From Botryllus schlosseri (taxonomy: Eukaryota): a stretch of DNA of 64,000 nucleotides. Positions 8,325 to 36,029 of this stretch are shown piece after piece. Numbering within the stretch: the stretch's first letter is position 1; each line of letters begins with the position of its first letter. The notes below the pieces were generated by a model. It was not told the DNA's origin. It made no database searches and was given only the letters and a program-made list of their open reading frames with translations. The stretch covers positions 28,646,001-28,710,000 of the forward strand of contig CM119372.1 in assembly GCA_051294905.1 (NCBI GenBank), given 5' to 3'. The translations under genes and the position numbers were made by a program.

Positions 8325-8600
8325 GTTAGTTTGTTTGAGGTAATCTTGGTGTTTGTCCACTACAACGGTCAGTTACACCAGGCCGATTTTCTTCATTTTT
8401 GATTCCGTATCTGCCGACTTGTAGCACGGCCCACTTCTAGGCTTATTGTAAGACACCGCTTACGCGGATGAGTCGGCGAGGAGGAGCCTAGATAAACCTC
8501 CAACACTTAGAAAGGATTTCTGAAGTCGACCTCGGTCGGACTCGAGCCGGCATACAATGGCGTTGCAGCCGTGGATTATACCACTGCGCTATCTCGCCAC
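8325..8600 (-). mobile_element. tRNA-derived SINE, near full length
   Basis: Reverse complement shows GTGGCGAGATAGCGCAGTGG (A box) and GGCTCGAGTCC (B box), shared body and AAAC-type tail. Confidence 0.85.
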
Positions 8601-9128
8601 AGAATTAGGCTATCTACATGTAGAGCTGGGACACGTAATTCATAACCTCTGTTATCTTGTTATAATTACTTTAGTTTATGTTGTTAATTCGTGACCTCCG
8701 ATTTGTTATATAATCAAACGATATTGTAGTGGCTCAAGCGTAGCAGACTAGAAAATAAACTGTCGTGAGACGCACAGACAAATTGTCATGTCTTTATATC
8801 TGACTGCATGTCTAGCAACTCAAGTTGTTAATTAACAGGGTCAGTGGCCACATTAACTACAAAAGGACTTGAAAACATTTTCATCATGGGGAAAAAGCAT
8901 TCATTCCGTCAATGCGGCCGTTGAACTTGACAATCAAGTCAAATGATTCAATGGTTTGATGGTCAGATAGCTTTGTAAAACGTGTTGCAACACCACCTGC
9001 ACTTAATTAAGTCTAATGATGAGCAGACTTAAATTTGAGTGACGATCCAAACGCATTTGAGTGTGAGCATACTTTTTGACGTGAGTTGAGTAACGAAATC
9101 GTTGCTGAGTAGAGAATCGCTACTCGAC

Positions 9129-12100: not shown

Positions 12101-15100
12101 AGTGAGCGGTTATGCCTGCAAACCTGGTCAGTGGTCACGTATAGCGATCATTGCGCAAAGCGATCCGCTCTACCGAAACGCACTGCACGTTTTGTTCCGC
12201 TTAGAGATGAATATTACGTATTATGAACTAGAAATATGATAAGTGACTTTGGCCCCCAGGCGAGTAAAATACAGCTGAGAAGAGTGTATTGATATTATGG
12301 TTCAATTTAACACGTTTAGCAATTAATGTAGATCTAGCGCTATTTTGTAGCGCTTTTTTCTCAATATTTAGCAACATCTAGCGATTTTTGACACCAGTTT
12401 TAGCGATTTTCTTCCATCCGGAGTTGGCAACACTGAATCAGTTGTGTTCGCGTGTACCGTAACGTATCCTCAACACTTGTTATGCCAACACCAATATCAT
12501 ACTAAGGATATATTGCTTCGGCAGCCACGCACTGTCGTTCGAATTCGACTAATTTCGCTGCTGACAATCAGTTGTGCTCACGCGTGCCGTAAAATATCCT
12601 CAACAAATGTTATGTCATATTTGCAGCATCATACTATGGACGTATTGACTCGGCGGAGTGTTACCGTGAGAGAAATGCTGTTTGAGCCCCTCGTCCTAGC
12701 CTTGGATTTACCGTTTCGAAAAATTCCACCAGAAGAAGCTGTGATCGAGTGTCACAATCAATGTCAGCCACGCTCCATCAACCTGTTGTTTTGACAAAAC
12801 CAGTACGTATACGCCGGAGATGAGCATTGATTAGGATTTAGAAAAAACGTATTTGTGAAATTTTTCTGGATTAGGTTGAATTGAGTTTTGAGATTGATTT
12901 ACCATATCGTACGGGCAACTACTACCGAGACCCGTCGTGACGAAATCGGATTAATCAGTCATGGAACGACAAGTTAGGGCTAACCGCTGATATTCCTAGT
13001 TTATTCTTGAAAGCTCTATAGATTACTGGTTAGCTGTATGTTGTGGGCGATTGACAACAGTTAGTTGTCGCTGTTATACAATTTACACTTTGTGTTATAC
13101 ATTCCTTGTTACCACCGCGAACTAGGAGGTCAATCACGACGACGGGCAACTACTCCCAATTGGCGGAATACTGTTTGATTCATCTGTATAATCAGGTTTA
13201 GCACCACAAGAAGAATATAAGTAGTTTATGATTGAATGAAATCTATCAATCAAACAACGATAATAACTATATAGATCTCGTTCGTATTACTATGAGAGCT
13301 AATCGATCACGTCCACACAATATTATTACGTAGCATTCATTTGGTGGGGATGTTGTTGTTAGTATTGTAACATGGTGATCGGCTACTATGACCTTTACAC
13401 CAGTTCTAAAAGGGTAAGGAATTGGTTAGTGTTACAGCTGTCTGACGGTGGGGTATTCGACAAAATTGATATGTTTTACTACGGAAGCTATGATCACACG
13501 GACGGGCTCTCATCACTTATCGTACGAATGCTTGTAATCTCGATGTAGTGTGATGCACACGAATCAGCTGTGATCAGTCGAGTGTGACACGATCGAAGTC
13601 ACTATTTACTGTTTGAAATAACTCGTATATTCCGTTCAAGAAATGTCCCTCATTTGTCCAAATATCCTCCTTTTTGTCAAATTGTCTTCCTTTTTTCATC
13701 TTAAAATATCTAAAAAGACTACGAATGGCACTAAATGATGACCTAGTTTACGAGAGATGGGTATTTCGGGAGTCAAGTCAGGGGACAAAATGAGCTTTTT
13801 TAGTCAACACCATGAAATTTGATGTATAAACATACAAATCATTCGTCCGCTATAGTAACTTTTTGCAGCTCGTGGAAAGTGTCCTCCTTTCGGGGCTTAT
13901 GGTAACCCTATATTTTACCAGCTTTTAGTCTCGGACTTGAACATCGAAGTTTGCACATAATTTCACATTACATTCCCTATGACAAGCATAGGCTATTACG
14001 GTTATGGGACCTGTGCTCTCAAACATGTATTGATGAATAGCGAAAGCGACCACAAGCTTTCATTACATGAAAAAAAACGAGCTCACTAGCCCGTCCATGT
14101 TGGCATGTACACACCAATGGCCATGTCCATGATCTGAAGTTTGCACATAATTTCACATTGCATTCCCATGACTTAGCACAGACTATTACGTGGGTATGGA
14201 GGCTGTGCTTTTCAAACATGTATCGAGGAATACCGAAAGCGACTCAAGCTACCATTACACGAAAAATCGAGCACACTCGTTCCTCCCTCTCGGGGTATAC
14301 CCACCTTCGTTTCGTACAGACAAATGTTTCCATGTTGCAGCGACAATAGCGGGGAGGGTGGTAGATCATTATCACAATCAGTACCTTGGGATGAGTGTGA
14401 AATCGACATCGTCCGTTAAGCGACTGAAGCTAGTCGCCACTACAATCACTCTCTGCGTAGTGCGTAAACGCGACGTACAAAGCGCTGCTGGGTATACGAA
14501 ACTACGGATTCTAGCCAAAGCGAGGTTATCGAGATAGCTGTAGCGATTCACAGCACATGCTAAATCTCCTTGAAATGGGAGTACAAAATGTATCGCTTTG
14601 AAATACTCAAGTAGAAGTAGTTGTTAAAGAGTAATTCGCACCGTAAAATTGCAACTGTTTTGGAGTGCTAATGTCACACAATTGCTATATTGATCACTCG
14701 CTTATGTGTAGAAAGCAGAAATTGACCCCTGGGTTGTACGATCTCGTGGCCTTGACAAACGTTCTATAGTTCAAAAGTCACTGTCATGTTGGGCTTTGAT
14801 TGCTGTTGTACTCTTGTTAGCGTCGATATTCATTGGTACGTGTTTTCATGGTCTAAAATGTTGGTTATTATAGAGTGTTTTCGTAAAAGGTTGGGAGCCA
14901 CTGATTTAGGCCTTGATGGGTTCAACCAAATACACGTGTAACACATCCTATTCCTGGGCCGTAACCGATCCTTTACCACACCTTCTATACGATAAACGTC
15001 CTTTTTATCCAGAGGTAAGCCGACGACATACGGGAAATGCAGGCGCTGACGTGCTATTTTGTTATTCTCTCCGCGTAACATGAAAGAAGGTATTGAGGTA

Positions 15101-15344
15101 CCCTCCCAAGGTCACTGCGAGCGTAAGTTAAGTCAATCTCTGTGTATGTAGTGTTAATGTCGCACCGTCGCAATAATGATCACTTATGTGTAGAAAGCAG
15201 AAATTTACGACTCGATTACTTGTACGAGCTTGTAGCTTTGGTAAGCTTGCTGAAGCGGAAAGCCACTCAAGTTGGACATTAAATTGATTGGTGTTCGTTC
15301 TCTTGTTAATAGTCGTTGGTACGTGCTTTCGTGCTTTAAAATTT
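9129..15344 (+). repeat. Inner element left inverted arm (~6.2 kb)
   Basis: Near-perfect reverse complement of 17020-23241; only two substitutions (near 14472 and 14584) and a 6-bp indel near 15308 noticed by eye. Confidence 0.95.
11272..12435. mobile_element. Non-autonomous hAT-type element inside inner left arm
   Basis: TIR CAGTGTTGCCAA / TTGGCAACACTG, 8-bp TSD AATCAGTT (11264-11271, 12436-12443), subterminal TTTAGCGA repeats. Confidence 0.9.
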
Positions 15345-17019
15345 TCAACGAATTTTAAAGATAAATAAAGAAACAGCTGATTCACACTTTTGCAAGCAAT
15401 ACTTCCGGGTATCCCGCTGTGCGGTAATGAAAAGAGGAGATTTAGGTCATAGCGAAATAGAATAAACTTCAAAAAATGGGGTTGATAAATTTTGTAAAGT
15501 ACCATAAGACATACTCAACATCAACTAATGAATTAGATATGATGTCTTGATGTCATGTGACTATAAAATCGGTTACACATTGTAACACATCGGTATCAGA
15601 CAATAACTTACACAAGCTTAAATGTGTGTTAATTTGCTTTGTAATGTGAGTTAGTGGGCATGGGGATGATTATTTCATCAATTGAATCGATTGCGATTAC
15701 GATTACTGCTGAATCATCCGACTATAATTACGGTTACAGAAAAATCCCACAAGTAGTCGAAACGTAATCACCAAGGTGCTAATTTGTTATCTCTCCTCCG
15801 TCATATGTCACCGGGTATAGGCATTGATACAATGCAGTATTGAATGCGATCCTAATAAGAATTGATACTATGCAGTGTTGACCGTGATACGTGAGGACCC
15901 CTGCTGTATGCTAATATGTCTTTTTACAAAAGTTATCACTCGTAACCCCCCACAGTGTGCGAGTTATCAACAAATCGCAGACACACTACTTCGCATAGGG
16001 GAGAATAATAACCCTCCACTCTGCTTAGTTTCAAATGGCAAAGCAATTATTGACGTTTCTTGTGTGTTAAACACATTTGGAACGCTGCTCCTTGGCCAGT
16101 AGTACGAACAGCGGACATCTATTTGAAGTTTTACACTCATCAAATAATAGATGACAAATTTCCACATCAAAGCAATAAAATCATCGGGTACCAAAATAAA
16201 TCATAACCGAGCCTGGTGGTAACGACAGCTCGCGGACTTGTATGAATTATCCAACTAATTGGTTGACGGTCAGCCATCTGCGGTTTTATGTAGTTATAGT
16301 TGCGGAGTTAAAAAAGTCAGTTGCTCGAGTTCTAGTTGCGCATTCTAGAACTGATTTCGCTGTGAAACTCGAACTGTAGAATAAAACATGTGTCGCGGTT
16401 TGACGTAAATCATGATACCGATGTTCTGTTATGTGATGTGCTTGCGGCCGTTGTTAGCTCACAGTCAGCGATACTAACAGTGGCTTAGGAAGGGTTTCAA
16501 CCACTTCAAATTCAAAGACCTATCCTTTCAAAATACCGATTCTATGTCTAATACTTCTTAGCTCATTTCCAAATCATCATTAATTCGTATTATCGGAAAT
16601 CATAGTCAGTTGTACAGCCTAGTTTATATTGCTACTTCATTTATGTACCCTCTTCATTACTACACACTAGGTGGCGGAAACGAGTAAAAATATTTATTTA
16701 AACGTATAGCACGCAGTGGGGGTACTTGTCGATCGCGTTGAACACTGTATTGTCGGGTACCACAGCCCAATGTCTACCTACCCTGTCATGTGACGTCGAA
16801 ATAATAACGAAATGGCACGTTAGTACTGCGTCTTCACAGATCATCGTGCTACGTATGAGTAAAAGCTACGTTTACGATATAGAAGGTGTGGTAAAAGATC
16901 GGTTTCGGCCCGGGGTAGGATGTGTTACACTGTTACACGCGTATTTTGTTGAACACATCAAGGTCTAAATAAGTTGTTCCTGCCTATTTATGACCATCCT
17001 TCGATGATAACAATAACAT

Positions 17020-20000
17020 AAATTTTAAAGCACGAAAGCACGTACCAACGACTATCAACGCTAACAAGAGAACGAACACCAATCAATTTAATGTCCAACT
17101 TGAGTGGCTTTCCGCTTCAGCAAGCTTACCAAAGCTACAAGCTCGTACAAGTAATCGAGTCGTAAATTTCTGCTTTCTACACATAAGTGATCATTATTGC
17201 GACGGTGCGACATTAACACTACATACACAGAGATTGACTTAACTTACGCTCGCAGTGACCTTGGGAGGGTACCTCAATACCTTCTTTCATGTTACGCGGA
17301 GAGAATAACAAAATAGCACGTCAGCGCCTGCATTTCCCGTATGTCGTCGGCTTACCTCTGGATAAAAAGGACGTTTATCGTATAGAAGGTGTGGTAAAGG
17401 ATCGGTTACGGCCCAGGAATAGGATGTGTTACACGTGTATTTGGTTGAACCCATCAAGGCCTAAATCAGTGGCTCCCAACCTTTTACGAAAACACTCTAT
17501 AATAACCAACATTTTAGACCATGAAAACACGTACCAATGAATATCGACGCTAACAAGAGTACAACAGCAATCAAAGCCCAACATGACAGTGACTTTTGAA
17601 CTATAGAACGTTTGTCAAGGCCACGAGATCGTACAACCCAGGGGTCAATTTCTGCTTTCTACACATAAGCGAGTGATCAATATAGCAATTGTGTGACATT
17701 AGCACTCCAAAACAGTTGCAATTTTACGGTGCGAATTACTCTTTAACAACTACTTCTACTTGAGTATTTCAAAGCGATACATTTTTTACTCCCATTTCAA
17801 GGAGATTTAGCATGTGCTGTGAATCGCTACAGCTATCTCGATAACCTCGCTTTGGCTAGAATCCGTAGTTTCGTATACCCAGCAGCGCTTTGTACGTTGC
17901 GTTTACGCACTACGCAGAGAGTGATTGTAGTGGCGACTAGCTTCAGTCGCTTAACGGACGATGTCGATTTCACACTCATCCCAAGGTACTGATTGTGATA
18001 ATGATCTACCACCCTCCCCGCTATTGTCGCTGCAACATGGAAACATTTGTCTGTACGAAACGAAGGTGGGTATACCCCGAGAGGGAGGAACGAGTGTGCT
18101 CGATTTTTCGTGTAATGGTAGCTTGAGTCGCTTTCGGTATTCCTCGATACATGTTTGAAAAGCACAGCCTCCATACCCACGTAATAGTCTGTGCTAAGTC
18201 ATGGGAATGCAATGTGAAATTATGTGCAAACTTCAGATCATGGACATGGCCATTGGTGTGTACATGCCAACATGGACGGGCTAGTGAGCTCGTTTTTTTT
18301 CATGTAATGAAAGCTTGTGGTCGCTTTCGCTATTCATCAATACATGTTTGAGAGCACAGGTCCCATAACCGTAATAGCCTATGCTTGTCATAGGGAATGT
18401 AATGTGAAATTATGTGCAAACTTCGATGTTCAAGTCCGAGACTAAAAGCTGGTAAAATATAGGGTTACCATAAGCCCCGAAAGGAGGACACTTTCCACGA
18501 GCTGCAAAAAGTTACTATAGCGGACGAATGATTTGTATGTTTATACATCAAATTTCATGGTGTTGACTAAAAAAGCTCATTTTGTCCCCTGACTTGACTC
18601 CCGAAATACCCATCTCTCGTAAACTAGGTCATCATTTAGTGCCATTCGTAGTCTTTTTAGATATTTTAAGATGAAAAAAGGAAGACAATTTGACAAAAAG
18701 GAGGATATTTGGACAAATGAGGGACATTTCTTGAACGGAATATACGAGTTATTTCAAACAGTAAATAGTGACTTCGATCGTGTCACACTCGACTGATCAC
18801 AGCTGATTCGTGTGCATCACACTACATCGAGATTACAAGCATTCGTACGATAAGTGATGAGAGCCCGTCCGTGTGATCATAGCTTCCGTAGTAAAACATA
18901 TCAATTTTGTCGAATACCCCACCGTCAGACAGCTGTAACACTAACCAATTCCTTACCCTTTTAGAACTGGTGTAAAGGTCATAGTAGCCGATCACCATGT
19001 TACAATACTAACAACAACATCCCCACCAAATGAATGCTACGTAATAATATTGTGTGGACGTGATCGATTAGCTCTCATAGTAATACGAACGAGATCTATA
19101 TAGTTATTATCGTTGTTTGATTGATAGATTTCATTCAATCATAAACTACTTATATTCTTCTTGTGGTGCTAAACCTGATTATACAGATGAATCAAACAGT
19201 ATTCCGCCAATTGGGAGTAGTTGCCCGTCGTCGTGATTGACCTCCTAGTTCGCGGTGGTAACAAGGAATGTATAACACAAAGTGTAAATTGTATAACAGC
19301 GACAACTAACTGTTGTCAATCGCCCACAACATACAGCTAACCAGTAATCTATAGAGCTTTCAAGAATAAACTAGGAATATCAGCGGTTAGCCCTAACTTG
19401 TCGTTCCATGACTGATTAATCCGATTTCGTCACGACGGGTCTCGGTAGTAGTTGCCCGTACGATATGGTAAATCAATCTCAAAACTCAATTCAACCTAAT
19501 CCAGAAAAATTTCACAAATACGTTTTTTCTAAATCCTAATCAATGCTCATCTCCGGCGTATACGTACTGGTTTTGTCAAAACAACAGGTTGATGGAGCGT
19601 GGCTGACATTGATTGTGACACTCGATCACAGCTTCTTCTGGTGGAATTTTTCGAAACGGTAAATCCAAGGCTAGGACGAGGGGCTCAAACAGCATTTCTC
19701 TCACGGTAACACTCCGCCGAGTCAATACGTCCATAGTATGATGCTGCAAATATGACATAACATTTGTTGAGGATATTTTACGGCACGCGTGAGCACAACT
19801 GATTGTCAGCAGCGAAATTAGTCGAATTCGAACGACAGTGCGTGGCTGCCGAAGCAATATATCCTTAGTATGATATTGGTGTTGGCATAACAAGTGTTGA
19901 GGATACGTTACGGTACACGCGAACACAACTGATTCAGTGTTGCCAACTCCGGATGGAAGAAAATCGCTAAAACTGGTGTCAAAAATCGCTAGATGTTGCT

Positions 20001-23000
20001 AAATATTGAGAAAAAAGCGCTACAAAATAGCGCTAGATCTACATTAATTGCTAAACGTGTTAAATTGAACCATAATATCAATACACTCTTCTCAGCTGTA
20101 TTTTACTCGCCTGGGGGCCAAAGTCACTTATCATATTTCTAGTTCATAATACGTAATATTCATCTCTAAGCGGAACAAAACGTGCAGTGCGTTTCGGTAG
20201 AGCGGATCGCTTTGCGCAATGATCGCTATACGTGACCACTGACCAGGTTTGCAGGCATAACCGCTCACTCTATAAGCGTGCCTTGCTCCATGCGTCCGTG
20301 AATAGTGATGCGATGTACCGTGGAAATGCGCTTGACTTCTCGAAACTGAGTTGGAGTACTTGAACACGACATGCGACTTGACACACTTGTACGCAACATG
20401 CGACTTGACCCGATACAACACGACTTGAACCGGGTTTGCCAGCCACTAAAAGTAGAGGACCAACCCGGAGTAAGAAATTTAATGAATCTGGTCCTAAACG
20501 CCAGTGTCACACTGATTCCGACAATACGAATTAAATTCTTGTAAAGACAATGCAACGACTTCAAAGTAGCCCCAAGAGTCTGAAAATCGACATTGATCAG
20601 AACAATCGCTGGACGAAATTGGTCATTGTTATGTCCATTGTGTTGCGGCGGTGCCATTATTGAAGCAATGCTGGTTTTCAGACTCCGAGGGCTGTTTCGG
20701 GGTGCATGGTTCCATTGTCCTGACGAGATTTCATTTTGTATCTTCGAAATCACTGCGACACTAGCTTTCGATCAAGGCCAATCATATTAAATTGCAGCGC
20801 TCAGGTCGCCAGATGTAGCACTGTCAATTATGCTACTTTTAGATTACACAGCAAGAAGAGACACTGTTTGCCCATGCGTAACCGCCAGGAGTTGCGTATC
20901 TATCCGTACGTTAGTAATCCATCATTAATTTCATTACATATCATTGGAGTCCGCACTCTGGTGGCAGATGAGTCGCCATAGTCGTCGGCCAGAACCGATC
21001 TTTATTAGTTATTTTCGGTAAAAAGCGCTAAATAATCGCTAAATACCTTTTCAAAAATCGCTAGATCTAGCGCGAAAATCGCTAAATTGGCAACACTGAA
21101 CTGATTGTCTATAGCGAAATCAGTCGCTCTCGAACGGCAAGTGCGTGGTGAGCTCGTGATCGATATGTGTATGTTACAGACGGGCAAAGCATTAGTTCGC
21201 CAACAGATCGATTCAAGTGGTACAATATACATCAGGGGTGGGCAAAGTTTTGAGCTCGCGGGCCGCATTCAACATTTGAATCCATTCGCGGGCCGCACTA
21301 TATAGAATTGGGATTCTAAGCCAAACGCGATACAAACAGAAGTCCGTCAATGAGTCGATACAAAGTCTCGCTGTACGCAAATTAATGTACAACGACACTC
21401 CCCTTACAGCAGAACTATTTTGTCTGGACGGGGGTGGTCACGATTCGTTTCCGGACCCGGCGCAGATTTCATCAGTTTTGGTTAAACCCGGACTGGATGC
21501 GGCCAAGTGTCTTTGAGAGTTGGATTTATGTTACATTTTACCAGCCTAATACATGGAAATACCAGGACTTTACGGGCCAGTCGGATTTTTTGGACTTTGA
21601 TTTTGCAATCCTATAGTCGCAGTGGATTCCGATTTCGAAATCTCCCACTCTACTTTACGCCTCACATCAGGCTATAGATCGTATCAGGTATGATCTGTCA
21701 CAATTCATTCCCATTATTGCACCACCGAGCGCGTTTCAGCCAAATAAGGTCTGTCCACCCCGAAGAAGCGAGCTACCCCGATTCGTCACTGGACAATTGA
21801 ATCTGACATCGTACTCGCAGTTACCGAGCGGGAAAGCGAGGCTCGAAGGTGTGGCGCAGCAATTCTCTGACGGTAATACTTCGCCGGTTCAATATATCCG
21901 TAGTATGATGCTGCAAATATGCTCGGCGGTGTTGGCATAACATGTGTTGATGAGGATATGTTACGACACACACGAGCACAACTGATTGTCTACAGCGAAA
22001 TTAGTCGAATTCGAACGACAGTGCGTGGCTGCCGAAGCAATAGTTCCTTAGCATGATATTGTAAATATGCTTGGAGGTGTTGGCATAACAAGTGTTGAGG
22101 ATATATTACGGTACACGCGAACACAACTGATTGCCTATAGCGAAATGAGTCGCCCTCGAACGACAAGTGCGTGGTGAGCTCGTGATCGATCGTACATACC
22201 GGTAAAGTATTAGTTCGACAACTGATCGATTGAAGTTGTACATCATGTACAGCATACAAAAATAATATACCGCGGGAAATTACACATCATTTACAGACAC
22301 CGGCATGATTACGCTTGACCAGACGTGAAGCAGTAAAAGAACCCATCACATTGTTTGGTTGGGACTGTCTGTTCTAATACGCTAGAAAGCGGTAAAGGTG
22401 TGGAACAGCAGTTTTTGCTTGCACCAATTACTACAATATCGGAAATTAACACGTTGATGCGAGTCAAATTGAGAATGAGCTATTTCTTTAATTACTTATT
22501 ATATTCTAAATGGTACTTTATTCAAGTTAATCTATGTCGGGGGCGCCTAATACCTATTTCTAATACACGACATTCTGGTTCTCGATATGACTCAAAATGA
22601 CACACATATTTATATCCAGAACAGATCAATTCTCCTTACTATTTAAGTCGACAACAAAGCAAGAGCAAGTACGACAGTATGGAACAGACTACATGCGTCA
22701 CTATGCACAGCCGAACGTATAGACACCTAAAACACGCACCAGGATCTCACCGACCAGGAGAAAACTTTATTGACGTCACGACCGGCAATTATTCCTATGC
22801 CCCCACGAAATCGAGTCAATCGCGAAACGACAAGTCAACCAGGGTGGTTTGATAGGCAATTATTCCCAAAGCCCCGTCACGAAATTGGACCACAAAACGA
22901 TAGGCCAGGGCGATTTGTCGGGAGGCAACTATTACCAAGCCCAGGTCTCGTGTCCAGAGGTCAAGCGAGGTAAATCTGGAGGCGAGTGGAAAAGTACAAG

Positions 23001-23241
23001 TAGAAGTACTCAAGTCTCATGTCTAACCAAAGTTCCAAAGGTCAATCGAGATTCTTTGTTCGTTTTCTCTCTAGCGTCAATCCCCCTTTTTTAATTGCCG
23101 CACAGTCAGAAGGGAATTCCCCTTGAGTATTGCTGCAAAACTGAGAATGAGGTAATTCTTTAATTAATTATTATATTGATAATCTTTGTTTGTTTATTAT
23201 AAATCGCGAATGGGCGTCGATCGCCCAAACTATATACTACT
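17020..23241 (-). repeat. Inner element right inverted arm (~6.2 kb)
   Basis: Mirror of 9129-15344 (e.g. 14830..15081- vs 17289..17540+ give identical translations). Confidence 0.95.
19935..21098. mobile_element. Mirror copy of the 11272-12435 hAT-type element in inner right arm
   Basis: Same element at the same site with TSD AACTGATT; ORF translations identical to the left copy. Confidence 0.9.
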
Positions 23242-23934
23242 CTCGACAGCAAAGGAATTGGTCTCCACCCTTAATTATTAACTCCAGATTCCAAGCCAAG
23301 CAAGTGTAATTTTTGAAAATCAATTTTTTTTGTTTGTTCTAAATTGATTTTATAATGTTTTTGTTGGGTTTTCCAACGTCAATGGGAGCCGCAAGTAGGC
23401 TAGCTCGTAGCTGCTTGTGGCTCTCAGAGCCGCGGTTGGGAATCACTGATCTAGAGAGGATTTTCAAACTAATTAGATCTCTCAAAAATACTCTATAACT
23501 TATGTTGGTTTACGAAATACTTTTTGAGCCCCCTTCGAGCTCGCTCCCCACCATATTGGGAAATTTGGGGTGCGGTAATTAGGCCCCTGGCAAGAATGCA
23601 AATCATTGAGTGCGATAAATTGACCCCTAAAAAATAGGCAATGGGTACATTATGACGTAACAAGCAAATGACGCATCTCTTTTACAGGGAGTTTGTTATC
23701 TCATTAGGCCTCTTCAGCGCAATCCATATATTGTCTTCCAACATAGCTTCGAAGATGCAAAATAAATGTAATCGTGAGTAATCGTGATTACTTTTCCAAT
23801 GTAATCGTAATCGTAATCGACTACTTCCTGATGTTGCTGTAATCGTAATCGTAATCGTAATCGCGTCATTCATAAGTAATCGTAATCGCAATCGATTACA
23901 ATCATAAACTAATCACCCCATGTCTGGTATCGAC

Positions 23935-26900
23935 CCTTTGGCGGAATTCTGTTTGGTTCGTCTGTACAGGTGTTATTAGTGCGACCAGATTTGGCACCTC
24001 GAGGAGGATATTGGTAAAAACCGTATCACACAACGAGGACAATAACTTTACCGGTCAACAATGTACGTAAATCAGCTGTGTTCAATCGAGCGTGACACAA
24101 TCGATGTCAGCCATCAATCTGCGGCTTGATAAAACCCGCGTTTTCGGGTTGACAGCAACACAATGCGATCCATTCGATATCACTATCGACCCTCCTATTT
24201 TAATATAGGGTTACCATGAGGCCTCCTTTAGGGGAGCATATGTCCTCCATTTCCCAGATATGTCACCCAATTCACCCAAATGTACTCTCTTTCTGTCAGT
24301 TTGTCCTCCTTGTTAGCTCAACATCTCCAAAAAAGCACCACGAGTAACGCAAAATGTGGGCCTAGATTACAAAAGTCGGGTACGTGGCCAAATCGGAAAA
24401 ATGACGCTATGATGGTATTGTGCAGGCTATTACGTGGATACGGGGGCCTGTGTAAACATGTGAATAGTAAAAGCGCTCCAAACTACCGTGAAAAAAGATC
24501 GAGCGCATTAGACCATGTCGGGGCCACCTTAGTACAGTCAAATGATCCCATGTCGTATCGAGAATAGCCGGGGCGGTGGTGGTACATCATTCTCACAAGA
24601 TGTACTTTGGAATGCGTGTGAAATCGTCTTCGTCCGCTACTCGACTAAAGCAGAATATAGCTTTGAAGTACTCAAGTAGCTTTAAAGGAAATGTCGTGAA
24701 ATCGCTTTCTATCCTAATGATAAAGAGTAGGCCCCCCATAAATCTATCGAGCCAAAATGTAGTTTCAAAGCAATCCAGTAATTTGTAAATCTTACGGGTT
24801 GAACGGTGTGTTCATTGACTAGAGAGAAGGAGACACGACGGTGCCTGTATAACAAGGCTGTTCTCAAACCGACATTGTCTTCGTTATTATCGGCGAGATA
24901 TGGCTTTGCAGTGACATTGCGGTCGGTAAAATACATTGATTAAATACGATTTATCCCTCGTATATGGGGATCAATGGGCGAATAATGTATCGATTCAGCA
25001 ATTCGGCATGCCAAGTACTTAATTTTCTCCGGCCCGCCGACCGAAGGAGTTGCCCGCCCCCCTTGTATAACACATATGTAGATGATACAATAGCGACAGC
25101 TAGCGGTTGTCAATCATCCATAAAAATACTAACCAGTAATACAGCCCTCAAGGAAAACAACAATCCGGGGAGATACGTCAAGTGTATTTCAGATACATCG
25201 TCTGTAGACCTCCAATTGCGGAGAACACTGGAGCAGCTGAAGCACTGTGTTCTGTCTAGGTCACCGAGATAAAGCTTGTTTTGCCAACTCGCCGACCGTC
25301 CGTGGTATGGGATAGCTGGGTCATTTCTCAAAGGTTCAGTACTCTCCGTATTTTGAGGTTATTGCACAATCTATCTCTAATATGCTGTAATATAGACAGG
25401 TCCAGACTTGTCTATTCACTTCCGTAGACTGACCTTTATAACACATTTTACACAATTAAATACACATGTTCAGTTTATTTGAAGTAATAACGGGCAAGCA
25501 CATTAACTAATCGTCCAGAACAAGGTGTAGAGCTTCTTTCAGATCTTGGCATACTTTCTTGATATCAGAATCTTTTTTTTGATTTGCGATGTAAAAGCAA
25601 TACCAGCTTCGCATACATGAGCATATGATTGCGTATAAACCGATATTGAAGTCTTCTGAGAGCATCTTCATTATTCTCCAGTCTACACAATATTATTTTC
25701 CTCTTAGTACGTTATGTCTCTCAATCCAACAGAACAGTTGAATTGCTATTCGAAGGTATCTGATACAGACAACTGTAAACTAATTCTTTAAGTTTGTTCA
25801 TCGTAGCGTAACGACCATTTTTACGAATCCATAACTGTATCATTTGATATCGTTGCTCAGTTAAGGTATAGCAATCCATGTATTGGCATTCGGCAATTTC
25901 ATTGTCAGATAGCTCAAGTTTTTCACGTGCAAACCTATACCAGTTCATCGGGTCAATCCGATCCATTATGACGTATATATCACTAGCAGTAATCTTGGAC
26001 ATATTCGATCTATAGTGTACAGCGAATAATCATGTAATAAATATTACACGTTATATATTGCCTTGCACTCGGTTCAACTACAATAACAAATAAGGCGATC
26101 AACTTACGCAATAATGACGTAATCATATCTCAGCGTTACTGAAACCAAGCAAAGCCGCTCTCGTAATAACTAGAGTAATCAACTATACGCAATCATAATG
26201 ACGTAATCATTACTGCACATGCTTGAACTGCAATACGCAATCATAATGAAGAATATATACGTATATATCAATTTCTGCAACTTTTTAATTTTGCTCGCAC
26301 TGTACACGATTTCATGTAGATAAATGTTTTGATTATTAGGCACCCTTCCTTCACAAAAAATACGCATCATTTATGAGAGTAGGAATCTAAGCGTTGGCCA
26401 TTACCACGCCAAGAGGTAAGAAGACATATGAAGTTTGGGCCATCATGGGCCTCATAGAAGAGTGCCAAAAAGATCGTCAGCGAGAAAACATGGGTCGAAA
26501 AGGATTGCCCTTATGTTGACCGTAAACTTCGATATAAATGTATTTGTATGGGTGTCTAAAGTGCTGGCACCGAATAATTATGTCGTGGTAATCTGGACCC
26601 CACAGGGCAACTGACATCCCACCCCGAATTATTATTTAACAGTGAAGAAATACCAATTTTGAATCGTGCGCTTCTTTTAGTTTAGTAGTCTGTGTATAGG
26701 CGAGTTCAATATCTTTTGATTACATACCGCACATGGGAAGTCGGACTGAGAGGATACAAAATTTATAGCAATATACACGCAATTATCAATATTATTGACC
26801 TAATCAATCATTAATTATACAGTCATTTCACCAGGTCCACGTGGTCGCATCTGAATGGAGACCGGATAGGTCAAAAGTGCTACATTCGGTCAAAGTGGCG

Positions 26901-27592
26901 AACATACCGCCTGGTTATCAAGTGTTTTTATGTATGATCGACCCCCACTGTCTAGCGAGACGAGCAGGATTTTGGTGTCTGATTATTAATGTCGTAAGAG
27001 TGTGGTAAATCCATTTACAAACTACTTTACACATTTCAAAATCCCAACACCCGAAAAGTAAGTAGCTAAAACGGTTGAAGCGGAGGTAGTCTGAAACACA
27101 ACGACTCATATAGCACAGATGGACAAATCCTAATCGAGTACATCGGATAGAGTTGCATCCTTGAAATCGTTATTTCCTCAACAAATCGATACAAGAATGG
27201 ATCTGCATGGGAATAAACATGAATATGTTCTGATGACACTCGTTATGGAAAGCTAAATTCGCCTGCCCCACATCCCCAACAGAACATATTGACAATTAAT
27301 ATCAGCCATATACTACAGAAATACCCATTTACTCGAATGGTACCATGTCTGAAATACTGTAGTGTAGGCGAATCAGCGTCTACTGATCCTGACAGTCACC
27401 GTTTAAACAGGTTTTTGCCGGGTCAACTGTGATCGGACACGGTTCATCCGCTACTTGCAGACTTATACGCGCGGGGGGTTGAAAAAAAAATGGCTCGGAT
27501 GCTATGTCAGCTCAGGGCGACAATTCGAAGTTTTAAACGATACGGTTGGTACGTAAAGCCTCGTTATTCCCGCGTATTGTGAGGGTAAAACC
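23935..27592 (+). repeat. Outer element left inverted arm, part 2
   Basis: Reverse complement of 29718-33374 (ORF 24964..25272+ mirrors 32038..32346-; 26918..27109- mirrors 30201..30392+). Match ends at GAGGGTAAAACC / GGTTTTACCCTC. Confidence 0.95.
25721..26002 (-). CDS. Death-domain-only protein (93 aa)
   Basis: ATG-initiated ORF with the death-domain pattern W..FAR..L.LSDNEI...L.EQ.YQM...W..KNG..AT...L...; TATA box ~50 bp upstream. Confidence 0.8.
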   Translation of the reverse strand: MSKITASDIYVIMDRIDPMNWYRFAREKLELSDNEIAECQYMDCYTLTEQRYQMIQLWIRKNGRYATMNKLKELVYSCLYQIPSNSNSTVLLD

Positions 27593-28234
27593 GATGCTAA
27601 AATAAGTCGTCGGAAGGGTATACCGAAAGCCTCTTTGCACTGCGGGTGAACTTATCGCATAGCATTTCACAGCTCTGCGGCGTAATTTAACTGTCTAGCG
27701 CTGTGGACGGTCCATTTTGTCTGCTAATTGGGGGCCATAAACGACCGAGTGAAACAAATAGTTTGGGGTATATGCGGATATGATTAGGAAACAACACGCT
27801 GAATGACTTGGGAATCTCAACTCGACAAAGGATCGTCGCGACGGGGGACCTGCAAAAACGTCCCAGACACCCTGAATCCCGCTAATGTAGGCGCTGACAG
27901 AGCATAATTTTCCCTGCTACGGGTGTAATCTAGATAAAGCATGATTTTTTCCTATATGTCTGTAATCTATATAAAGCATAGTGCTCCCTAGATACCAGGC
28001 GTGGGGGATCACGAATCACCAAGTGTTTTTATACATTGAGAAATGATCGAGCTATTTTTATACCCGAGGTAGTCATTCAGAGACATGCAGGCTTATTCGT
28101 ATAGACTCTCTATAGTGTAGCATCTATCTGATTCGGGGATAAGTAAATGCTTTGTCCACGCTCAAACTGAGGATGCTTTGAATTTGTATCTTACTCATGT
28201 TATTATTCACCCTCCAGGAAATATTTATAGTACG

Positions 28235-28741
28235 ATGGAGTCTAATAAATGCCGTATTTGTGCGCGGGAATTCACAAGAAAATGCAACCTCAAAAGTCAT
28301 TTACTATGGCACACTGGTGTTAAAGAACATGAATGCTTGATATGCGGACGATGGTTTCTTGCCAAACAGAACCTACATGCCCATTTGGCTGTACACTCGG
28401 GGGTGAAACCGTACGATTGTGAAGTATGTGGTCGTTTTTTTGCCCGAAAATACACCATGGAAGTTCATTTGGCCACACATACTGGCGTAGAAAGATTCGA
28501 GTGTGGGGTGTGTGGTAAGCTTCTGTCGGGGAAGAATGGGCTGAAAAAACACCTAGAAACACACTTTGGAATTGGAAAATACTCGTGTCAGGTGTGTGGG
28601 AGACTGTTTCCTCACCAATGCGGGTTAGAAACTCACCTCCAGGCTCCCGTGGGACTGAGAAAATATCCATGCGGTGTTTGCGGTAAAGCTTTTGGTTCGC
28701 AAGCAAATCTTCACAGACACGAGACTACTCCCTTTGTGTGA
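28235..28741 (+). CDS. Tandem C2H2 (Kruppel-type) zinc-finger protein, 168 aa from first ATG
   Basis: Six CxxC units with TGVKEHE/SGVKPYD/TGVERFE linkers; fingers 1-4 have both His, fingers 5-6 lack the last His. A pyrimidine-rich CCCTCCAG at ~28210-28217 suggests an upstream intron, so the true start could lie in another exon. Confidence 0.9.
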   Translation: MESNKCRICAREFTRKCNLKSHLLWHTGVKEHECLICGRWFLAKQNLHAHLAVHSGVKPYDCEVCGRFFARKYTMEVHLATHTGVERFECGVCGKLLSGKNGLKKHLETHFGIGKYSCQVCGRLFPHQCGLETHLQAPVGLRKYPCGVCGKAFGSQANLHRHETTPFV

Positions 28742-28769
28742 GCCGATCGTATTTCAATATGAGTGTACC

Positions 28770-28812
28770 AATAAATATTTTTTTCGCGTCTGTATAATTC
28801 TGTGTTGTTTGT
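28770..28812 (+). terminator. Polyadenylation signal of the zinc-finger gene
   Basis: AATAAA at 28770-28775, ~30 bp after the stop, followed by T- and GT-rich downstream sequence (TGTGTTGTTTGT). Confidence 0.6.
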
Positions 28813-31060
28813 CCGAGGCTTCTATGTTGGTGTTTTAATCATTTAGTGGGGGCAGAGATAAAAGAGTCGATATTACAATAGACACGACTCGTCCTAGTCG
28901 AGTATTAGAAACCACCATGAAAGCAGGTCAACTTTATGTGACAGTTTTGATAACACCAATACTACAAAATACCATTTATCGTCTGACGGTGAAAGATGGG
29001 GATTTGCGAATAGGGGCTGGTTGCAATACCACACGAGTAAATACACAGAGAGAGTCTTTATTTTAAACAAACCAAAATACGTAACAAACGGCAGTGATGG
29101 TGGTACAGAAAATATACTTTGCACAGTATTCGGTACTAGATGGGAATGATCGACAAGACCGTGAAGGTCATCTAGTCTGATCACACAGTGTAAAGAGGCT
29201 TTCGGTATACCCTTCCGAAACGTATAGTTACGGGGCATGGACGGGCGCCCGGGAGACATACCTTATTAGTAATTTTACCGTACGACTTATTTTAGCATCG
29301 GGTGATTTTAATACCCTTTCGAAGATGTCGTGTTTTATTTGACGAAGTCAGAGGTTTGTTTCACACGGTGTGATTACGAGTGATAAATTGTAAACATAAT
29401 AGCACACAGCAGCTGACGGGTCGCGGTGCGGGACAATAAAGACGGTTACCGTGCGAGACGTACAAGCCACCATAACTACACAGAGGTCGTCAGCAATGCC
29501 GCTACTTTTTTCCGGGTACTCGATTCTGTCTACTCGCACTGCACCAAGTTATCAATGTGGCTAGCCTTCTTTAGGAAGCCACTTACTTTTACTAGTTTAT
29601 AAAAGTTTAGCGACCCCCTCCGTATCATGCGACGATAGCTGGAGCTGTTAGGCTTGACTAGAGTTGACCACGATTCGGGCACGCATTTTCATCGGCTCGA
29701 TGTGGAACTGTCTTAAAGGTTTTACCCTCACAATACGCGGGAATAACGAGGCTTTACGTACCAACCGTATCGTTTAAAACTTCGAATTGTCGCCCTGAGC
29801 TGACATAGCATCCGAGCCATTTTTTTTTCAACCCCCCGCGCGTATAAGTCTGCAAGTAGCGGATGAACCGTGTCCGATCACAGTTGACCCGGCAAAAACC
29901 TGTTTAAACGGTGACTGTCAGGATCAGTAGACGCTGATTCGCCTACACTACAGTATTTCAGACATGGTACCATTCGAGTAAATGGGTATTTCTGTAGTAT
30001 ATGGCTGATATTAATTGTCAATATGTTCTGTTGGGGATGTGGGGCAGGCGAATTTAGCTTTCCATAACGAGTGTCATCAGAACATATTCATGTTTATTCC
30101 CATGCAGATCCATTCTTGTATCGATTTGTTGAGGAAATAACGATTTCAAGGATGCAACTCTATCCGATGTACTCGATTAGGATTTGTCCATCTGTGCTAT
30201 ATGAGTCGTTGTGTTTCAGACTACCTCCGCTTCAACCGTTTTAGCTACTTACTTTTCGGGTGTTGGGATTTTGAAATGTGTAAAGTAGTTTGTAAATGGA
30301 TTTACCACACTCTTACGACATTAATAATCAGACACCAAAATCCTGCTCGTCTCGCTAGACAGTGGGGGTCGATCATACATAAAAACACTTGATAACCAGG
30401 CGGTATGTTCGCCACTTTGACCGAATGTAGCACTTTTGACCTATCCGGTCTCCATTCAGATGCGACCACGTGGACCTGGTGAAATGACTGTATAATTAAT
30501 GATTGATTAGGTCAATAATATTGATAATTGCGTGTATATTGCTATAAATTTTGTATCCTCTCAGTCCGACTTCCCATGTGCGGTATGTAATCAAAAGATA
30601 TTGAACTCGCCTATACACAGACTACTAAACTAAAAGAAGCGCACGATTCAAAATTGGTATTTCTTCACTGTTAAATAATAATTCGGGGTGGGATGTCAGT
30701 TGCCCTGTGGGGTCCAGATTACCACGACATAATTATTCGGTGCCAGCACTTTAGACACCCATACAAATACATTTATATCGAAGTTTACGGTCAACATAAG
30801 GGCAATCCTTTTCGACCCATGTTTTCTCGCTGACGATCTTTTTGGCACTCTTCTATGAGGCCCATGATGGCCCAAACTTCATATGTCTTCTTACCTCTTG
30901 GCGTGGTAATGGCCAACGCTTAGATTCCTACTCTCATAAATGATGCGTATTTTTTGTGAAGGAAGGGTGCCTAATAATCAAAACATTTATCTACATGAAA
31001 TCGTGTACAGTGCGAGCAAAATTAAAAAGTTGCAGAAATTGATATATACGTATATATTCT

Positions 31061-31260
31061 TCATTATGATTGCGTATTGCAGTTCAAGCATGTGCAGTAA
31101 TGATTACGTCATTATGATTGCGTATAGTTGATTACTCTAGTTATTACGAGAGCGGCTTTGCTTGGTTTCAGTAACGCTGAGATATGATTACGTCATTATT
31201 GCGTAAGTTGATCGCCTTATTTGTTATTGTAGTTGAACCGAGTGCAAGGCAATATATAAC
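31061..31260 (+). promoter_or_regulatory. Putative promoter of the death-domain gene (mirror at ~26050-26249 on minus strand)
   Basis: TGATTACGTCATTAT twice (31101-31115, 31185-31199), ATTGCGTA three times, TATATAA at 31253-31259, ATG at 31308. Confidence 0.5.
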
Positions 31261-31307
31261 GTGTAATATTTATTACATGATTATTCGCTGTACACTATAG
31301 ATCGAAT

Positions 31308-31589
31308 ATGTCCAAGATTACTGCTAGTGATATATACGTCATAATGGATCGGATTGACCCGATGAACTAGTATAGGTTTGCACGTGAAAAACTTGAGCTA
31401 TCTGACAATGAAATTGCCGAATGCCAATACATGGATTGCTATACCTTAACTGAGCAACGATATCAAATGATACAGTTATGGATTCGTAAAAATGGTCGTT
31501 ACGCTACGATGAACAAACTTAAAGAATTAGTTTACAGTTGTCTGTATCAGATACCTTCGAATAGCAATTCAACTGTTCTGTTGGATTGA
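31308..31589 (+). pseudogene. Mirror copy of death-domain gene with nonsense mutation W21*
   Basis: ATG at 31308; codon 21 (31368-31370) is TAG where the left-arm copy has TGG; otherwise matches. Confidence 0.85.
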
Positions 31590-34500
31590 GAGACATAACG
31601 TACTAAGAGGAAAATAATATTGTGTAGACTGGAGAATAATGAAGATGCTCTCAGAAGACTTCAATATCGGTTTATACGCAATCATATGCTCATGTATGCG
31701 AAGCTGGTATTGCTTTTACATCGCAAATCAAAAAAAAGATTCTGATATCAAGAAAGTATGCCAAGATCTGAAAGAAGCTCTACACCTTGTTCTGGACGAT
31801 TAGTTAATGTGCTTGCCCGTTATTACTTCAAATAAACTGAACATGTGTATTTAATTGTGTAAAATGTGTTATAAAGGTCAGTCTACGGAAGTGAATAGAC
31901 AAGTCTGGACCTGTCTATATTACAGCATATTAGAGATAGATTGTGCAATAACCTCAAAATACGGAGAGTACTGAACCTTTGAGAAATGACCCAGCTATCC
32001 CATACCACGGACGGTCGGCGAGTTGGCAAAACAAGCTTTATCTCGGTGACCTAGACAGAACACAGTGCTTCAGCTGCTCCAGTGTTCTCCGCAATTGGTG
32101 GTCTACAGACGATGTATCTGAAATACACTTGACGTATCTCCCCGGATTGTTGTTTTCCTTGAGGGCTGTATTACTGGTTAGTATTTTTATGGATGATTGA
32201 CAACCGCTAGCTGTCGCTATTGTATCATCTACATATGTGTTATACAAGGGGGGCGGGCAACTCCTTCGGTCGGCGGGCCGGAGAAAATTAAGTACTTGGC
32301 ATGCCGAATTGCTGAATCGATACATTATTCGCCCATTGATCCCCATATACGAGGGATAAATCGTATTTAATCAATGTATTTTACCGACCGCAATGTCACT
32401 GCAAAGCCATATCTCGCCGATAATAACGAAGACAATGTCGGTTTGAGAACAGCCTTGTTATACAGGCACCGTCGTGTCTCCTTCTCTCTAGTCAATGAAC
32501 ACACCGTTCAACCCGTAAGATTTACAAATTACTGGATTGCTTTGAAACTACATTTTGGCTCGATAGATTTATGGGGGGCCTACTCTTTATCATTAGGATA
32601 GAAAGCGATTTCACGACATTTCTTTTAAAGCTACTTGAGTACTTCAAAGCTATATTCTGCTTTAGTCGAGTAGCGGACGAAGACGATTTCACACGCATTC
32701 CAAAGTACATCTTGTGAGAATGATGTACCACCACCGCCCCGGCTATTCTCGATACGACATGGGATCATTTGACTGTACTAAGGTGGCCCCGACATGGTCT
32801 AATGCGCTCGATCTTTTTTCACGGTAGTTTGGAGCGCTTTTACTATTCACATGTTTACACAGGCCCCGTATCCACGTAATAGCCTGCACAATACCATCAT
32901 AGCGTCATTTTTCCGATTTGGCCACGTACCCGACTTTTGTAATCTAGGCCCACATTTTGCGTTACTCGTGGTGCTTTTTTGGAGATGTTGAGCTAACAAG
33001 GAGGACAAACTGACAGAAAGAGAGTACATTTGGGTGAATTGGGTGACATATCTGGGAAATGGAGGACATATGCTCCCCTAAAGGAGGCCTCATGGTAACC
33101 CTATATTAAAATAGGAGGGTCGATAGTGATATCGAATGGATCGCATTGTGTTGCTGTCAACCCGAAAACGCGGGTTTTATCAAGCCGCAGATTGATGGCT
33201 GACATCGATTGTGTCACGCTCGATTGAACACAGCTGATTTACGTACATTGTTGACCGGTAAAGTTATTGTCCTCGTTGTGTGATACGGTTTTTACCAATA
33301 TCCTCCTCGAGGTGCCAAATCTGGTCGCACTAATAACACCTGTACAGACGAACCAAACAGAATTCCGCCAAAGGGTCGATACCAAGTCTCCTTGTACGTA
33401 AATTATTATACAACGACACCTATATTACAGCAGAACAATCTTGTCTGGACGGAGGAGGTCACGAAACATCTTCGGACCCGGGGCAGATTTCATCAGTTTT
33501 CAGCGAAGCCAGTCTGGATGCGGCCAAATGGCCCTGAGAGTCGGATTTATGCTATATTTTACCCTCACAACATATGGAAATAACAGGACTTTACGAGCCA
33601 GCCGGATTTTTTGGACTTTGATTTAGCAACCCTATAGTCGCAGTGGATTCCGATTTCGAAATCTCCCCCTCTACTTTACACCTCACCTCAGGCTATAGAT
33701 CGTATCAGGTATGATCTGTCACAATTCATTCCCATTATTGCACCACCGAGCGCGTTTCAGCCAAATAAGGTCAGTCCACCCCGATGAAGCGAGCTACCCC
33801 GATTCGTTTCGCGGACAATTGAAATAACATCGTACTCGCAGTTACCGAGCGGAAAATACAAGGCCCGAAGGCGTGACACAGCAATTCTCTGACGGTAACA
33901 CTCTGCCGAGTCAATATATCCGTAGTATGATGCTGCAAATATGCTTGGAGGTGTTGGCATAACATGTGTTGAGGATATGTTTCGATCCTCGGCACAGCAG
34001 GATGGATCACAAAACAAAATGGCGCTATGCAGTCTACGCGGCCGCATGTCATTTTCGACAGCGAGATTGATTATCGTGAATTAGGTCTTGGACAAAGCAC
34101 CGATAGCAGCGCGTCGTATAATATCCGAGCTAAGTAGTTATAGTATACTATAAACCTGATCCTCGCACCGCCAACGAGCCGTAACCACAATTCTAATACC
34201 GCAACAATCCATACACAATAATACACCATACCGGGAGCTTTCAAAATACCAGTTGACGGGCTTCGATCGATTGTCGACACGTGATGATTTAAATCAGCCT
34301 GATTTAAACCAGAACCCTAAGTATGATGCAAATATGCTTGGAGGTATTGGCATAGCATGTGTTGAGGATATATTTACGACACATACGTGAACACAACTGA
34401 CTGTCTGTAGCGAAATTTGTCGACTTCGAGCGATAGGGCGTGGCTGCCGAAGCAATAGTTCCTTAGTATGATATTGTAAATATGCGTGGAGGTGTTGCCA

Positions 34501-36029
34501 TAACAAGTGTTGAGGATATGTTACGATACACGCGAACACAACTGATTGTCTGCAGCGAAATGAGTCGCCCTCGAACGGCAAGTGCGTGGTGAGCTCGTGA
34601 TCGATATGTGTATGTTACAGACGGGCAAAGCATTAGTTCGCCAACAGTTCGATTCAAGTTGTATATCATGTACAGCATACAAAATTAATATCCCGTGGTA
34701 AATTGAATATCATTTGCAGACACCGGGATGATTACGCTTGACCAACCGTGAAGCAGTAAAAAGAACCCATCATAAATACATTGTTTTACTCGGGACTGTC
34801 TGTCCTTATGAATACGCTAGAACGAGGTATAGGTATTGAACAGCCACATTTGTTGCTTGCACCGATTACTAGGTACGTAATACCAGGGGTTAACATGTTG
34901 ATGCGAGCAAAATTGAGAATCAGCTATTTGCTCAATTACTTATTGTATTTATAATGCTAATTTATTTAAGTTAATCTATGTCGGGTCGCCTAATACACAT
35001 TTCTACTACGACATTCATTCTCATTCTCGATATGACTCGAAATGGTATACATATTTATAATCGTAACAGATCGTTTCTCGTTACTGTCTGGGTCGATAAC
35101 AAAGTAAAAAAGGGTTCAAGTACAACAGTACACAAGACACAGACCACAAGCGTCACTTTACATAGCCGAACGTATGGACACCTAAAACACGCACCAGGAT
35201 CTCATGGATCAGAAGAAACTATACTGACGTCACGACCGGTAATTATGACCCACCGTACACGAAATTGAATCAACCGCGGAACGACAAGTCAACCAGCTTG
35301 ACGCTCTATTGTTCCCGAGCCACGAAATTGGACCACGGAATGACAGGTCAGGGCAGGCAACTATGGTCAAGCCCCGTCGTACACGACCGAAGTCAGCACC
35401 GGCAATTATTCCCATGCCCCACCGTACATGAAATCGAGTCAACCACGGGACGACAAGTCAGCCAGGGGGTTTGACGGGGAATTATTCCCAAGACACGTCA
35501 CGAAATTGGACCACAAAACGATAGGTCAGGACGATATGTCGTCAGGCAACTATTACCAAGCCCCGTCGCGTATGACCGGAGTCAGCTGTAATTTCATGTC
35601 CTTGGCCAGAGGTCGAGCGAGGTTGTTACGAGTCCAGTATGACACAGGCTGTGGACGTCGCTTTGCCCAGCCGAGCGTATCGTCGGCGTGCATACCATTG
35701 AAATTAAAAGCCGATCCATTGTTATTCGAGGGAAAATATAATAAATACTCAATACACAAGTCTCGTGTCCAGAGATCAAGCGAGGTAAGGAGTGGAAAAG
35801 TACAAGTAGAATGACTCCAGTACAAAGGTCAATCCAGATTCTTTGTTCGTTTTCTCTCAGTCCCCCCTATTGCCGCACAGTCAGAAGGGAATTCCCCTCG
35901 AGTATTGCTGCAAAACTGAGAATGAGCTAATTCTTACACTGTTTATTATCTTGATAATGTTTGTTTGTTCTTTATAAATCGCGAATGGGCACCTTCCGCA
36001 CATTTCTCTAACTACTTCCATGCTACAAG

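Follow-up and report, generated by a model that had tools for sequence, protein, structure and literature searches.

Maverick/Polinton elements are recognised by (AGT)2//(ACT)2 or (AG)3 ends together with a target duplication of 6 base pairs (bp) (Barreat and Katzourakis 2021, PMC8097293). Adintoviruses carry homologues of the accessory proteins IAP and Bcl2 (Starrett et al. 2021, PMC8502044), and nematode Mavericks carry host-derived cargo in the form of wasp proteases and krma kinases (bioRxiv 10.1101/2022.07.12.499685). Here we analysed a stretch of 64,000 nucleotides (nt) from Botryllus schlosseri, referred to below as the window (assembly GCA_051294905.1, contig CM119372.1, positions 28,646,001 to 28,710,000 of the forward strand), in which a gene for a tandem C2H2 zinc-finger protein, P0004, lies at the centre of a palindromic element with Maverick/Polinton ends. 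The literature searched, which was covered incompletely, held no report of palindromic non-autonomous Polintons, nor of tandem C2H2 or death-domain-only cargo on such elements, and the relevant parts of PMC3597677, PMC6431247 and PMC10923776 give no direct precedent for such cargo.

The element that surrounds the gene, termed the outer element, and the gene itself have the following coordinates in the window.

4613..36016, no strand assigned: outer palindromic element with AGTAGT...ACTACT ends (ends and duplication read from the sequence).
28235..28741, + strand: zinc-finger coding sequence of 168 amino acids, P0004 (open reading frame (ORF), Pfam, finger parsing and model).
28250-28312, 28334-28396, 28418-28480 and 28502-28564, + strand: canonical fingers 1-4 (C2H2 pattern).
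28586-28648 and 28670-28732, + strand: three-ligand fingers 5-6 (Pro at the fourth ligand).

The outer element begins with AGTAGT from 4613 and finishes with ACTACT up to 36016, the (AGT)2 ends of a Maverick/Polinton, and the sequence TCCATG stands on both flanks (4607-4612 and 36017-36022) as a 6-bp target duplication of the kind that these elements leave. Its terminal inverted repeats are 6.3-kb mirror arms that differ at 15 positions over 6311 nt and make up ~86% of the element, whose net size is ~14.7 kb once two nested insertions have been subtracted. In its ends, its 6-bp duplication, its terminal inverted repeats and its size near 15 kb the outer element thus resembles the Mavericks/Polintons described in PMC8097293, from which it differs in having no detected core ORFs, in arms that take up ~86% of its length, and in carrying cargo genes only. 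A Pfam scan of 137 ORFs, taken from one copy of each arm and both loops with the 2.5-kb insertion left out, gave no match to the Maverick core genes (pPolB, RVE integrase, ATPase, protease and capsid). Just 2/137 ORFs passed the Pfam cut-offs, with the domains Death (E 7.5e-11) and BIR (E 8.8e-7), and the longest stop-to-stop frame within 4613-36016 was 206 amino acids. The terminal motif found no match in the viral and metagenome contigs of IMG/VR and JGI, nor did an Rfam scan of 4500-36100 return one. Because the core genes were undetected, the outer element is a non-autonomous Maverick/Polinton derivative and not an autonomous member.

The zinc-finger gene is real. P0004 matched Pfam zf-C2H2 with an E-value of 2.3e-22, and its units are spaced at 28 residues across all six; the protein is nearly all fingers, with 5 residues ahead of the first Cys and 2 after the last finger. 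The original prediction had described a six-finger ORF with an intact frame. The 168-codon frame is indeed intact and holds six C2H2-type units, but canonical fingers, with the pattern C-x2-C-x12-H-x3-H, are confined to fingers 1-4. A model built from a 40-sequence alignment contained six beta-beta-alpha units at a mean predicted local distance difference test score (pLDDT) of 80.6, zinc being outside the model; its helices are 12 residues long in fingers 1-4 versus 9 in fingers 5-6. Folding from the single sequence gave no usable model (pLDDT 37). We are highly confident that this gene travels as cargo on a non-autonomous Maverick derivative, and much surer of that than of any function. The function that we favour, tentatively and at a little under an even chance, is that the gene belongs to an effector-stripped cargo cassette, of which it is the innermost member and was left uncopied, and that it acts as a passive competitor for DNA sites.

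Among described systems, adintoviruses also carry anti-apoptotic homologues on Polinton-type elements, but they are autonomous and non-palindromic, and the main-text section on them names no tandem C2H2 or death-domain-only gene (PMC8502044). Nematode Mavericks, as described, carry host-type genes near the terminal repeat, some of them intron-bearing; those genes encode enzymes on elements with core genes, whereas here a DNA-binding array sits on a palindrome without them. Zinc-finger genes of the KRAB/FiNZ type (Wells et al. 2023, PMC10547256) share with P0004 a single-exon tandem array of 28-residue C2H2 units behind a splice acceptor, but P0004 has no effector exon that we could find, has four canonical fingers, and is carried by an element rather than opposing one. 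Small C2H2 or zinc-ribbon genes, to which no function is assigned, are described on helper-dependent linear DNA with inverted ends for Mavirus (MV04), transpovirons and pacmanvirus (PMC3671162, PMC11788076); these are protist systems, and their likeness to P0004 is one of description, with no homology claimed.

The gene had been predicted to lack an effector, and this was supported, as no effector domain was detectable in a Pfam scan of the upstream ORFs. No match to a KRAB, SCAN, BTB, ZAD, SET or FiNZ-type effector was obtained for ORFs of at least 42 amino acids in 23925-29717, a scan that shorter exons could escape, and we found no nearby strong donor giving an in-frame upstream exon, a search that a very short exon could evade. 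Homologue searches with P0004 returned generic fingers only, at 27-45% identity. Among 178 proteins the best identity over at least 120 residues was 42%, with no close parent in that set, and no close longer relative stood among the best 120 of 933 matches. An Atlas search with P0004 led to generic C2H2 clusters, and searches of IMG/VR and JGI with P0004 or with P0003, the product of the neighbouring death-domain gene described below, gave no relative (IMG/VR was searched for P0004 by exact peptide patterns). Proteins P0007-P0017 and their kin form a C2H2 family of ~228 amino acids on long ENA contigs, with one member named from the bacterium Endozoicomonas euniceicola; their similarity to P0004 is generic only.

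The signals proposed around the gene were recovered on the same strand.

27903..27979, + strand: ~38-nt tandem duplication carrying both motif copies, a candidate promoter (TATA-like box at 27968; putative promoter role).
28195..28217, + strand: candidate splice acceptor, cis or trans, in phase 1 to the ORF and 17 nt ahead of its ATG.
28770..28812, + strand: AATAAA and GT-rich downstream stretch (sequence signals).

The duplicated motif is TGTAATCTAnATAAAGCAT, found at 27924 and 27961; when up to 3 mismatches were allowed, the window held 4 matches versus 0.19 expected. The two copies of the tandem duplication are identical at 32/41 columns. The TATA-like box at 27968 sits in the second copy of the duplication and suggests a transcription start near 28000. 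The copies of TGTAATCTAnATAAAGCAT with 3 mismatches in the inner arms (11522 and 20830) were set aside as not clearly homologous, since their alignment score was reached by 6/200 shuffles. The candidate acceptor, a pyrimidine-rich CAG ending at 28217, has pyrimidines at 15/20 preceding bases and was the best of 4 candidates listed. At the 3' end, the predicted AATAAA stands at 28770 and the GT-rich stretch follows it.

The gene also lies where it had been placed, in the centre of the palindrome, as the spacer 27593-29717 sits between near-identical arms. The description of this spacer as a single-copy loop did not hold, because it contains an inverted copy of part of itself and a high-copy repeat.

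27591..27642, no strand assigned: inverted copy of 29186-29301 minus about 63 nt, a remnant of a longer arm (sequence comparison).
29047..29186, no strand assigned: high-copy dispersed repeat within the loop (depth in thousands, in DNA-like runs).

Because 27591-27642 is an inverted copy of 29186-29301, position 29186 marks an older arm boundary, to which the mirror symmetry formerly extended.

Other copies of the locus were sought in 24 listed sequencing runs, of which 4 were compared with the window at 90% likeness (the small-share runs X17-X20 were left out); the listings covered 40 of 292 substitutions, 12 of 50 indels and 15 of 21 joints. Part of the loop was present in 20/24 listed runs, from 10 studies; no RNA run is on record among the holders, a blank that carries no information about expression. 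The concern that the gene might be a one-off, unexpressed fragment was answered in part: the finger exon is covered in X6, X7 and X8, which come from three studies under two species labels, and at least two variants of it occur in X6 and in X7, but its expression is doubtful at ~4 reads. Identity of the exon in these three data sets was about 94-99%. The exon contigs of X7, the run with the second species label, differed at 4 positions over 300 nt and at 10 over 156 nt, and in X8 a single contig over 28111-29099 had 31 differences and 1 gap. X6 had six contigs at 28615, and one long contig, at depth 26, for the region upstream. The change at 28615 is synonymous and is the sole coding change among the substitutions listed.

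In X7 the depth was 26.5 on the inner arm, 13 on the loop and ~50 on the death-domain gene, depth being a rough guide and not copy number. The 2:1 ratio of arm to loop is as expected of a palindrome, and the depths fit palindromes together with further arms that have other centres. Unlike in X7, the arm and loop contigs of X8 had similar depth (7-17), a possible sign of low coverage or of an arrangement that is not palindromic. X8 was considered as a source of RNA and rejected, as its flat depth near 15 and its unspliced contig over 28111-29099 are DNA-like, and it was not used for expression.

The RNA data came from the raw single-cell run X23 (22.2 million records, ~3% of the run), with counts estimated from depth; the reads are from another individual and may derive from other copies. 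On the death-domain gene ~52 reads were found, all in one direction (sense) and piled ahead of its AATAAA, and they carry the P0063 variant; the death-domain gene family is transcribed. For the finger gene, the RNA check that had been proposed yielded ~4 sense reads, near background, and none of the 15 of 21 joints listed was a splice joint at 28217. The loop bins upstream of its coding sequence were empty, but some arm bins reached depth 2.9, so that ~4 reads leave expression of the finger gene doubtful.

The arms carry cargo that the original prediction had not included, a death-domain gene and a BIR remnant, and this changes the context of the finger gene.

25721..26002, - strand: death-domain-only gene of 93 amino acids, P0003 (Pfam Death on ORF 25724-26029; AATAAA at 25479).
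31308..31589, + strand: mirror-image counterpart of that gene in the right arm, interrupted at codon 21 by an in-frame stop.
25113..25358, - strand: BIR (IAP) remnant without start codon, stop-bounded (Pfam; mirror at 31952-32197, + strand).
26104..26241, - strand: clustered TGACGTAA / ATTGCGTA sites on the upstream side of the death-domain gene (sequence scan).

P0003 had 18 matches among 1.84 billion representative proteins. After its own allele P0063, the best match by identity was P0185 (49%, from residue 1), and P0184, which comes from a sea cucumber and contains several death domains, had a slightly better E-value. P0185, P0186, P0187 and P0192, three from Styela clava and one from a Logan contig, combine a death domain with a caspase, and these four align to the window over residues 1-81 only. 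As judged from these alignments, the closest relatives of P0003 are the N-terminal domains of ascidian death-domain caspases, which also suggests an ascidian as host. Prodomain-only decoys are represented by CARD-only proteins, pyrin-only proteins and viral FLIPs. P0003 is like them in having a death-fold domain without a catalytic, protease domain and unlike them in that its death domain is of the ascidian-caspase type, the decoy role being putative. Caspases of the P0185/P0186/P0187/P0192 type go unmentioned in the relevant part of the Ciona caspase account (PMC10923776). The BIR remnant is positioned downstream of the death-domain gene, and a TATA-like box lies upstream of that gene at 26057 (- strand). 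We take the TGACGTAA / ATTGCGTA sites to be bZIP-like, and stress-inducible bZIP control of the death-domain gene is a guess. Unlike the BIR sequence and the right-hand death-domain copy, which are broken, the finger gene keeps an intact frame. Within the element, the death-domain gene is probably more promising than the finger gene.

The remaining parts of the outer element are the arms and the insertions nested within the left one.

4613..7255, no strand assigned: left arm, outer part, mirror of 33374-36016 with 11 differences.
23936..27592, no strand assigned: left arm, inner part, mirroring the right arm from 29718 (4 differences over 3668 nt compared).
29718..36016, no strand assigned: right arm, uninterrupted (arm comparison).
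7256..23925, no strand assigned: 2.5-kb inverted-repeat element inside the left arm, with ends AGACATGGGG and a 10-bp target duplication GGTATCGACC, containing the inner palindrome.
9129..23241, no strand assigned: inner, related palindromic element with AGTAGT ends, a 6-bp duplication CTCGAC and subterminal GCCCATTCGCGATTTATAA.

The 19-nt subterminal motif GCCCATTCGCGATTTATAA is common to all four ends of the outer and inner elements and occurs nowhere else in the window. Neither a zinc-finger nor a death-domain gene was detected in the inner palindrome (9129-23241). The nesting at 7256-23925 thus has three levels, a palindrome within the 2.5-kb inverted-repeat element within a second palindrome. 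Outside the terminal repeats, the outer (24423-24679) and inner (14179-14614) elements have in common a block of ~70% identity that carries indels in other copies and is perhaps the remains of a small gene or else a cis element, and a 45-nt match (80%) links the two loops (29374-29412 and 15901-15945). Elsewhere in the window, 60484-62883 (+ strand) holds an intact 799-amino-acid frame for a P-element/THAP9-like transposase (Pfam).

In the reading that we favour, the finger gene is carried by a helper-dependent, palindromic Maverick/Polinton derivative in which one end module was probably duplicated in mirror image after folding back ~0.45 kb downstream of it, and the gene would be central only as the first one left uncopied. 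Read outward, the + strand of the right half carries the zinc finger (28235), then the death domain (31308), the BIR (31952) and the terminus, all pointing outward, and this co-oriented order and the older arm boundary fit a mirror-copied end module. Fingers 1-4 of P0004 would read ~12 bp. Because the protein has no domain that recruits co-factors, it would act by site occupancy, excluding host factors from its sites as a passive repressor or competitor, most likely at host or helper promoters rather than in the arms, and its expression would be low-level or condition-limited. Such a mode of action has a parallel in the neighbouring gene, a caspase prodomain that lacks its protease. Since the gene is carried by a young mobile element, it is duplicated with the element's moves.

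Several observations weigh against such a function. In fingers 5 and 6, Pro replaces the last zinc ligand with no adjacent His or Cys, which leaves each with fewer than four ligands; Pro at this position was found in 1/2247 fingers matched across 178 fetched zinc-finger proteins. The linkers, in N-to-C order TGVKE, SGVKP, TGVER, FGIGK and VGLRK, show mismatches to TGEKP that climb from 2, 2 and 3 to 4 and 4, where the fetched set averages 1.3, and these ligand losses and this gradient are the pattern expected of decay. The unspliced leader contains five upstream ATGs, most of which would be cleared by removal of a short leader intron or by trans-splicing, a process known in ascidians. The ~4 reads of X23 on the finger coding sequence, all sense, amount to a depth no higher than that of non-genic arm bins (up to 2.9). 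A joint with a strand switch, from 27423 to 27787, in run X6 suggests copies whose centre lacks the zinc-finger gene, the inner element moved recently without one, and the asymmetry by which we infer the right half to be the copying template could instead be a right-side insertion. In the closest rival reading the gene would be a neutral passenger of no use to the element: a captured host zinc-finger exon with its acceptor and 3' signals that sits in a permissive loop and decays from its C-terminal end. We regard this as a serious contender with about a one-in-three chance. RNA near background, the two ligand losses with the linker gradient, and the lack of the gene in related elements all agree with it, as does a loop that has a high-copy repeat and differs among data sets, X6 and X8 both holding a variant that skips 29171-29412. 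The acceptor is in phase 1, the intron phase of two-exon KRAB/FiNZ genes. Its place just ahead of the fingers also resembles the two-exon layout described for such host genes (PMC10547256). A passenger sits less well with an intact frame that starts at an ATG of its own in good context and is accompanied by a TATA-like box and a clean 3' end, and with an exon that three other data sets retain at about 94-99% identity. The six contigs of X6 at 28615, versus one upstream, fit a more conserved coding sequence, and a close parent is missing among the 178 proteins (best 42% over at least 120 residues), a set outside which the host genome lies.

The original prediction had also proposed that P0004 may bind the arm repeats or serve as a decoy against silencing by host zinc-finger proteins, and that such elements could enlarge zinc-finger families. 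In a wider form of the binding idea, in which binding to arm repeats or termini shields the element from host zinc-finger silencing or aids replication, integration or packaging, we consider this improbable. Transposon DNA is a predicted target of tandem C2H2 proteins (PMC10547256), and small zinc-binding proteins are described in Mavirus and transpovirons (PMC3671162). The contact residues (-1, 2, 3, 6) of fingers 1 to 6 are RCNS, AQNA, RYTV, GNGK, HCGT and SANR, and the predicted site for fingers 4 to 1, ~KNN-NYG-NAY-NAG, was derived from a crude recognition code, so that the motif scan is a low-powered test. In 27593-36016 the four-finger site occurred 6 times versus 8.2 expected, a count reached by 52/60 shuffles, and the three-finger site 14 times versus 14.8 expected; neither is enriched, and the arm-binding idea drew no support from the scan. 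Two three-finger matches, at 28100 and 28136 (- strand), fall inside the finger gene's own leader, but the duplicated motif contains no match to the predicted site in its four- or three-finger form, the first 300 nt of either element have no three-finger match, and the inner element has moved although it lacks a gene of this kind. Less probable still is a hidden effector, in which the acceptor would receive a coding exon from upstream whose short effector peptide went unrecognised, as in the FiNZ genes of fish. The frame is open from acceptor to ATG, the acceptor is in phase 1, and a 28-residue effector would slip past the Pfam scan (PMC10547256). Yet 1/7 donor-like sites (score at least 5/7, in 23936-28180) has an ATG-led phase-1 frame, and this donor, at 24380, is 3.8 kb off and offers 33 amino acids antisense to arm sequence. 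The joints listed include none in support of such an exon, and the lack of a close longer relative among the best matches is a further point of small weight. A fusion of zinc finger and death domain was rejected, as the finger ORF ends in a stop and has a separate poly(A) signal, and the death-domain copy upstream of it lies on the opposite strand.

Tandem zinc-finger genes are usually regarded as host weapons against mobile DNA. Should P0004 be merely a decaying passenger, the significance of the locus shrinks to one further cargo type on a palindromic family. A broader and rather unlikely proposal is that palindromic Maverick satellites in this animal carry effector-stripped modules (finger array, caspase prodomain and IAP piece) as dominant-negative decoys of host silencing and cell death, spread through the genome, such that gene-less parasites would supply a virus-like element's counter-defence and seed host gene families. 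With a transcribed candidate cell-death decoy beside it, the finger gene looks like host-manipulating cargo, and together with this death-domain-only neighbour it makes up a small, testable cassette. A finger-only gene on an active virus-like element would mean that the element itself carries the DNA-binding half of the weapon, and would offer a concrete copying route for such genes.

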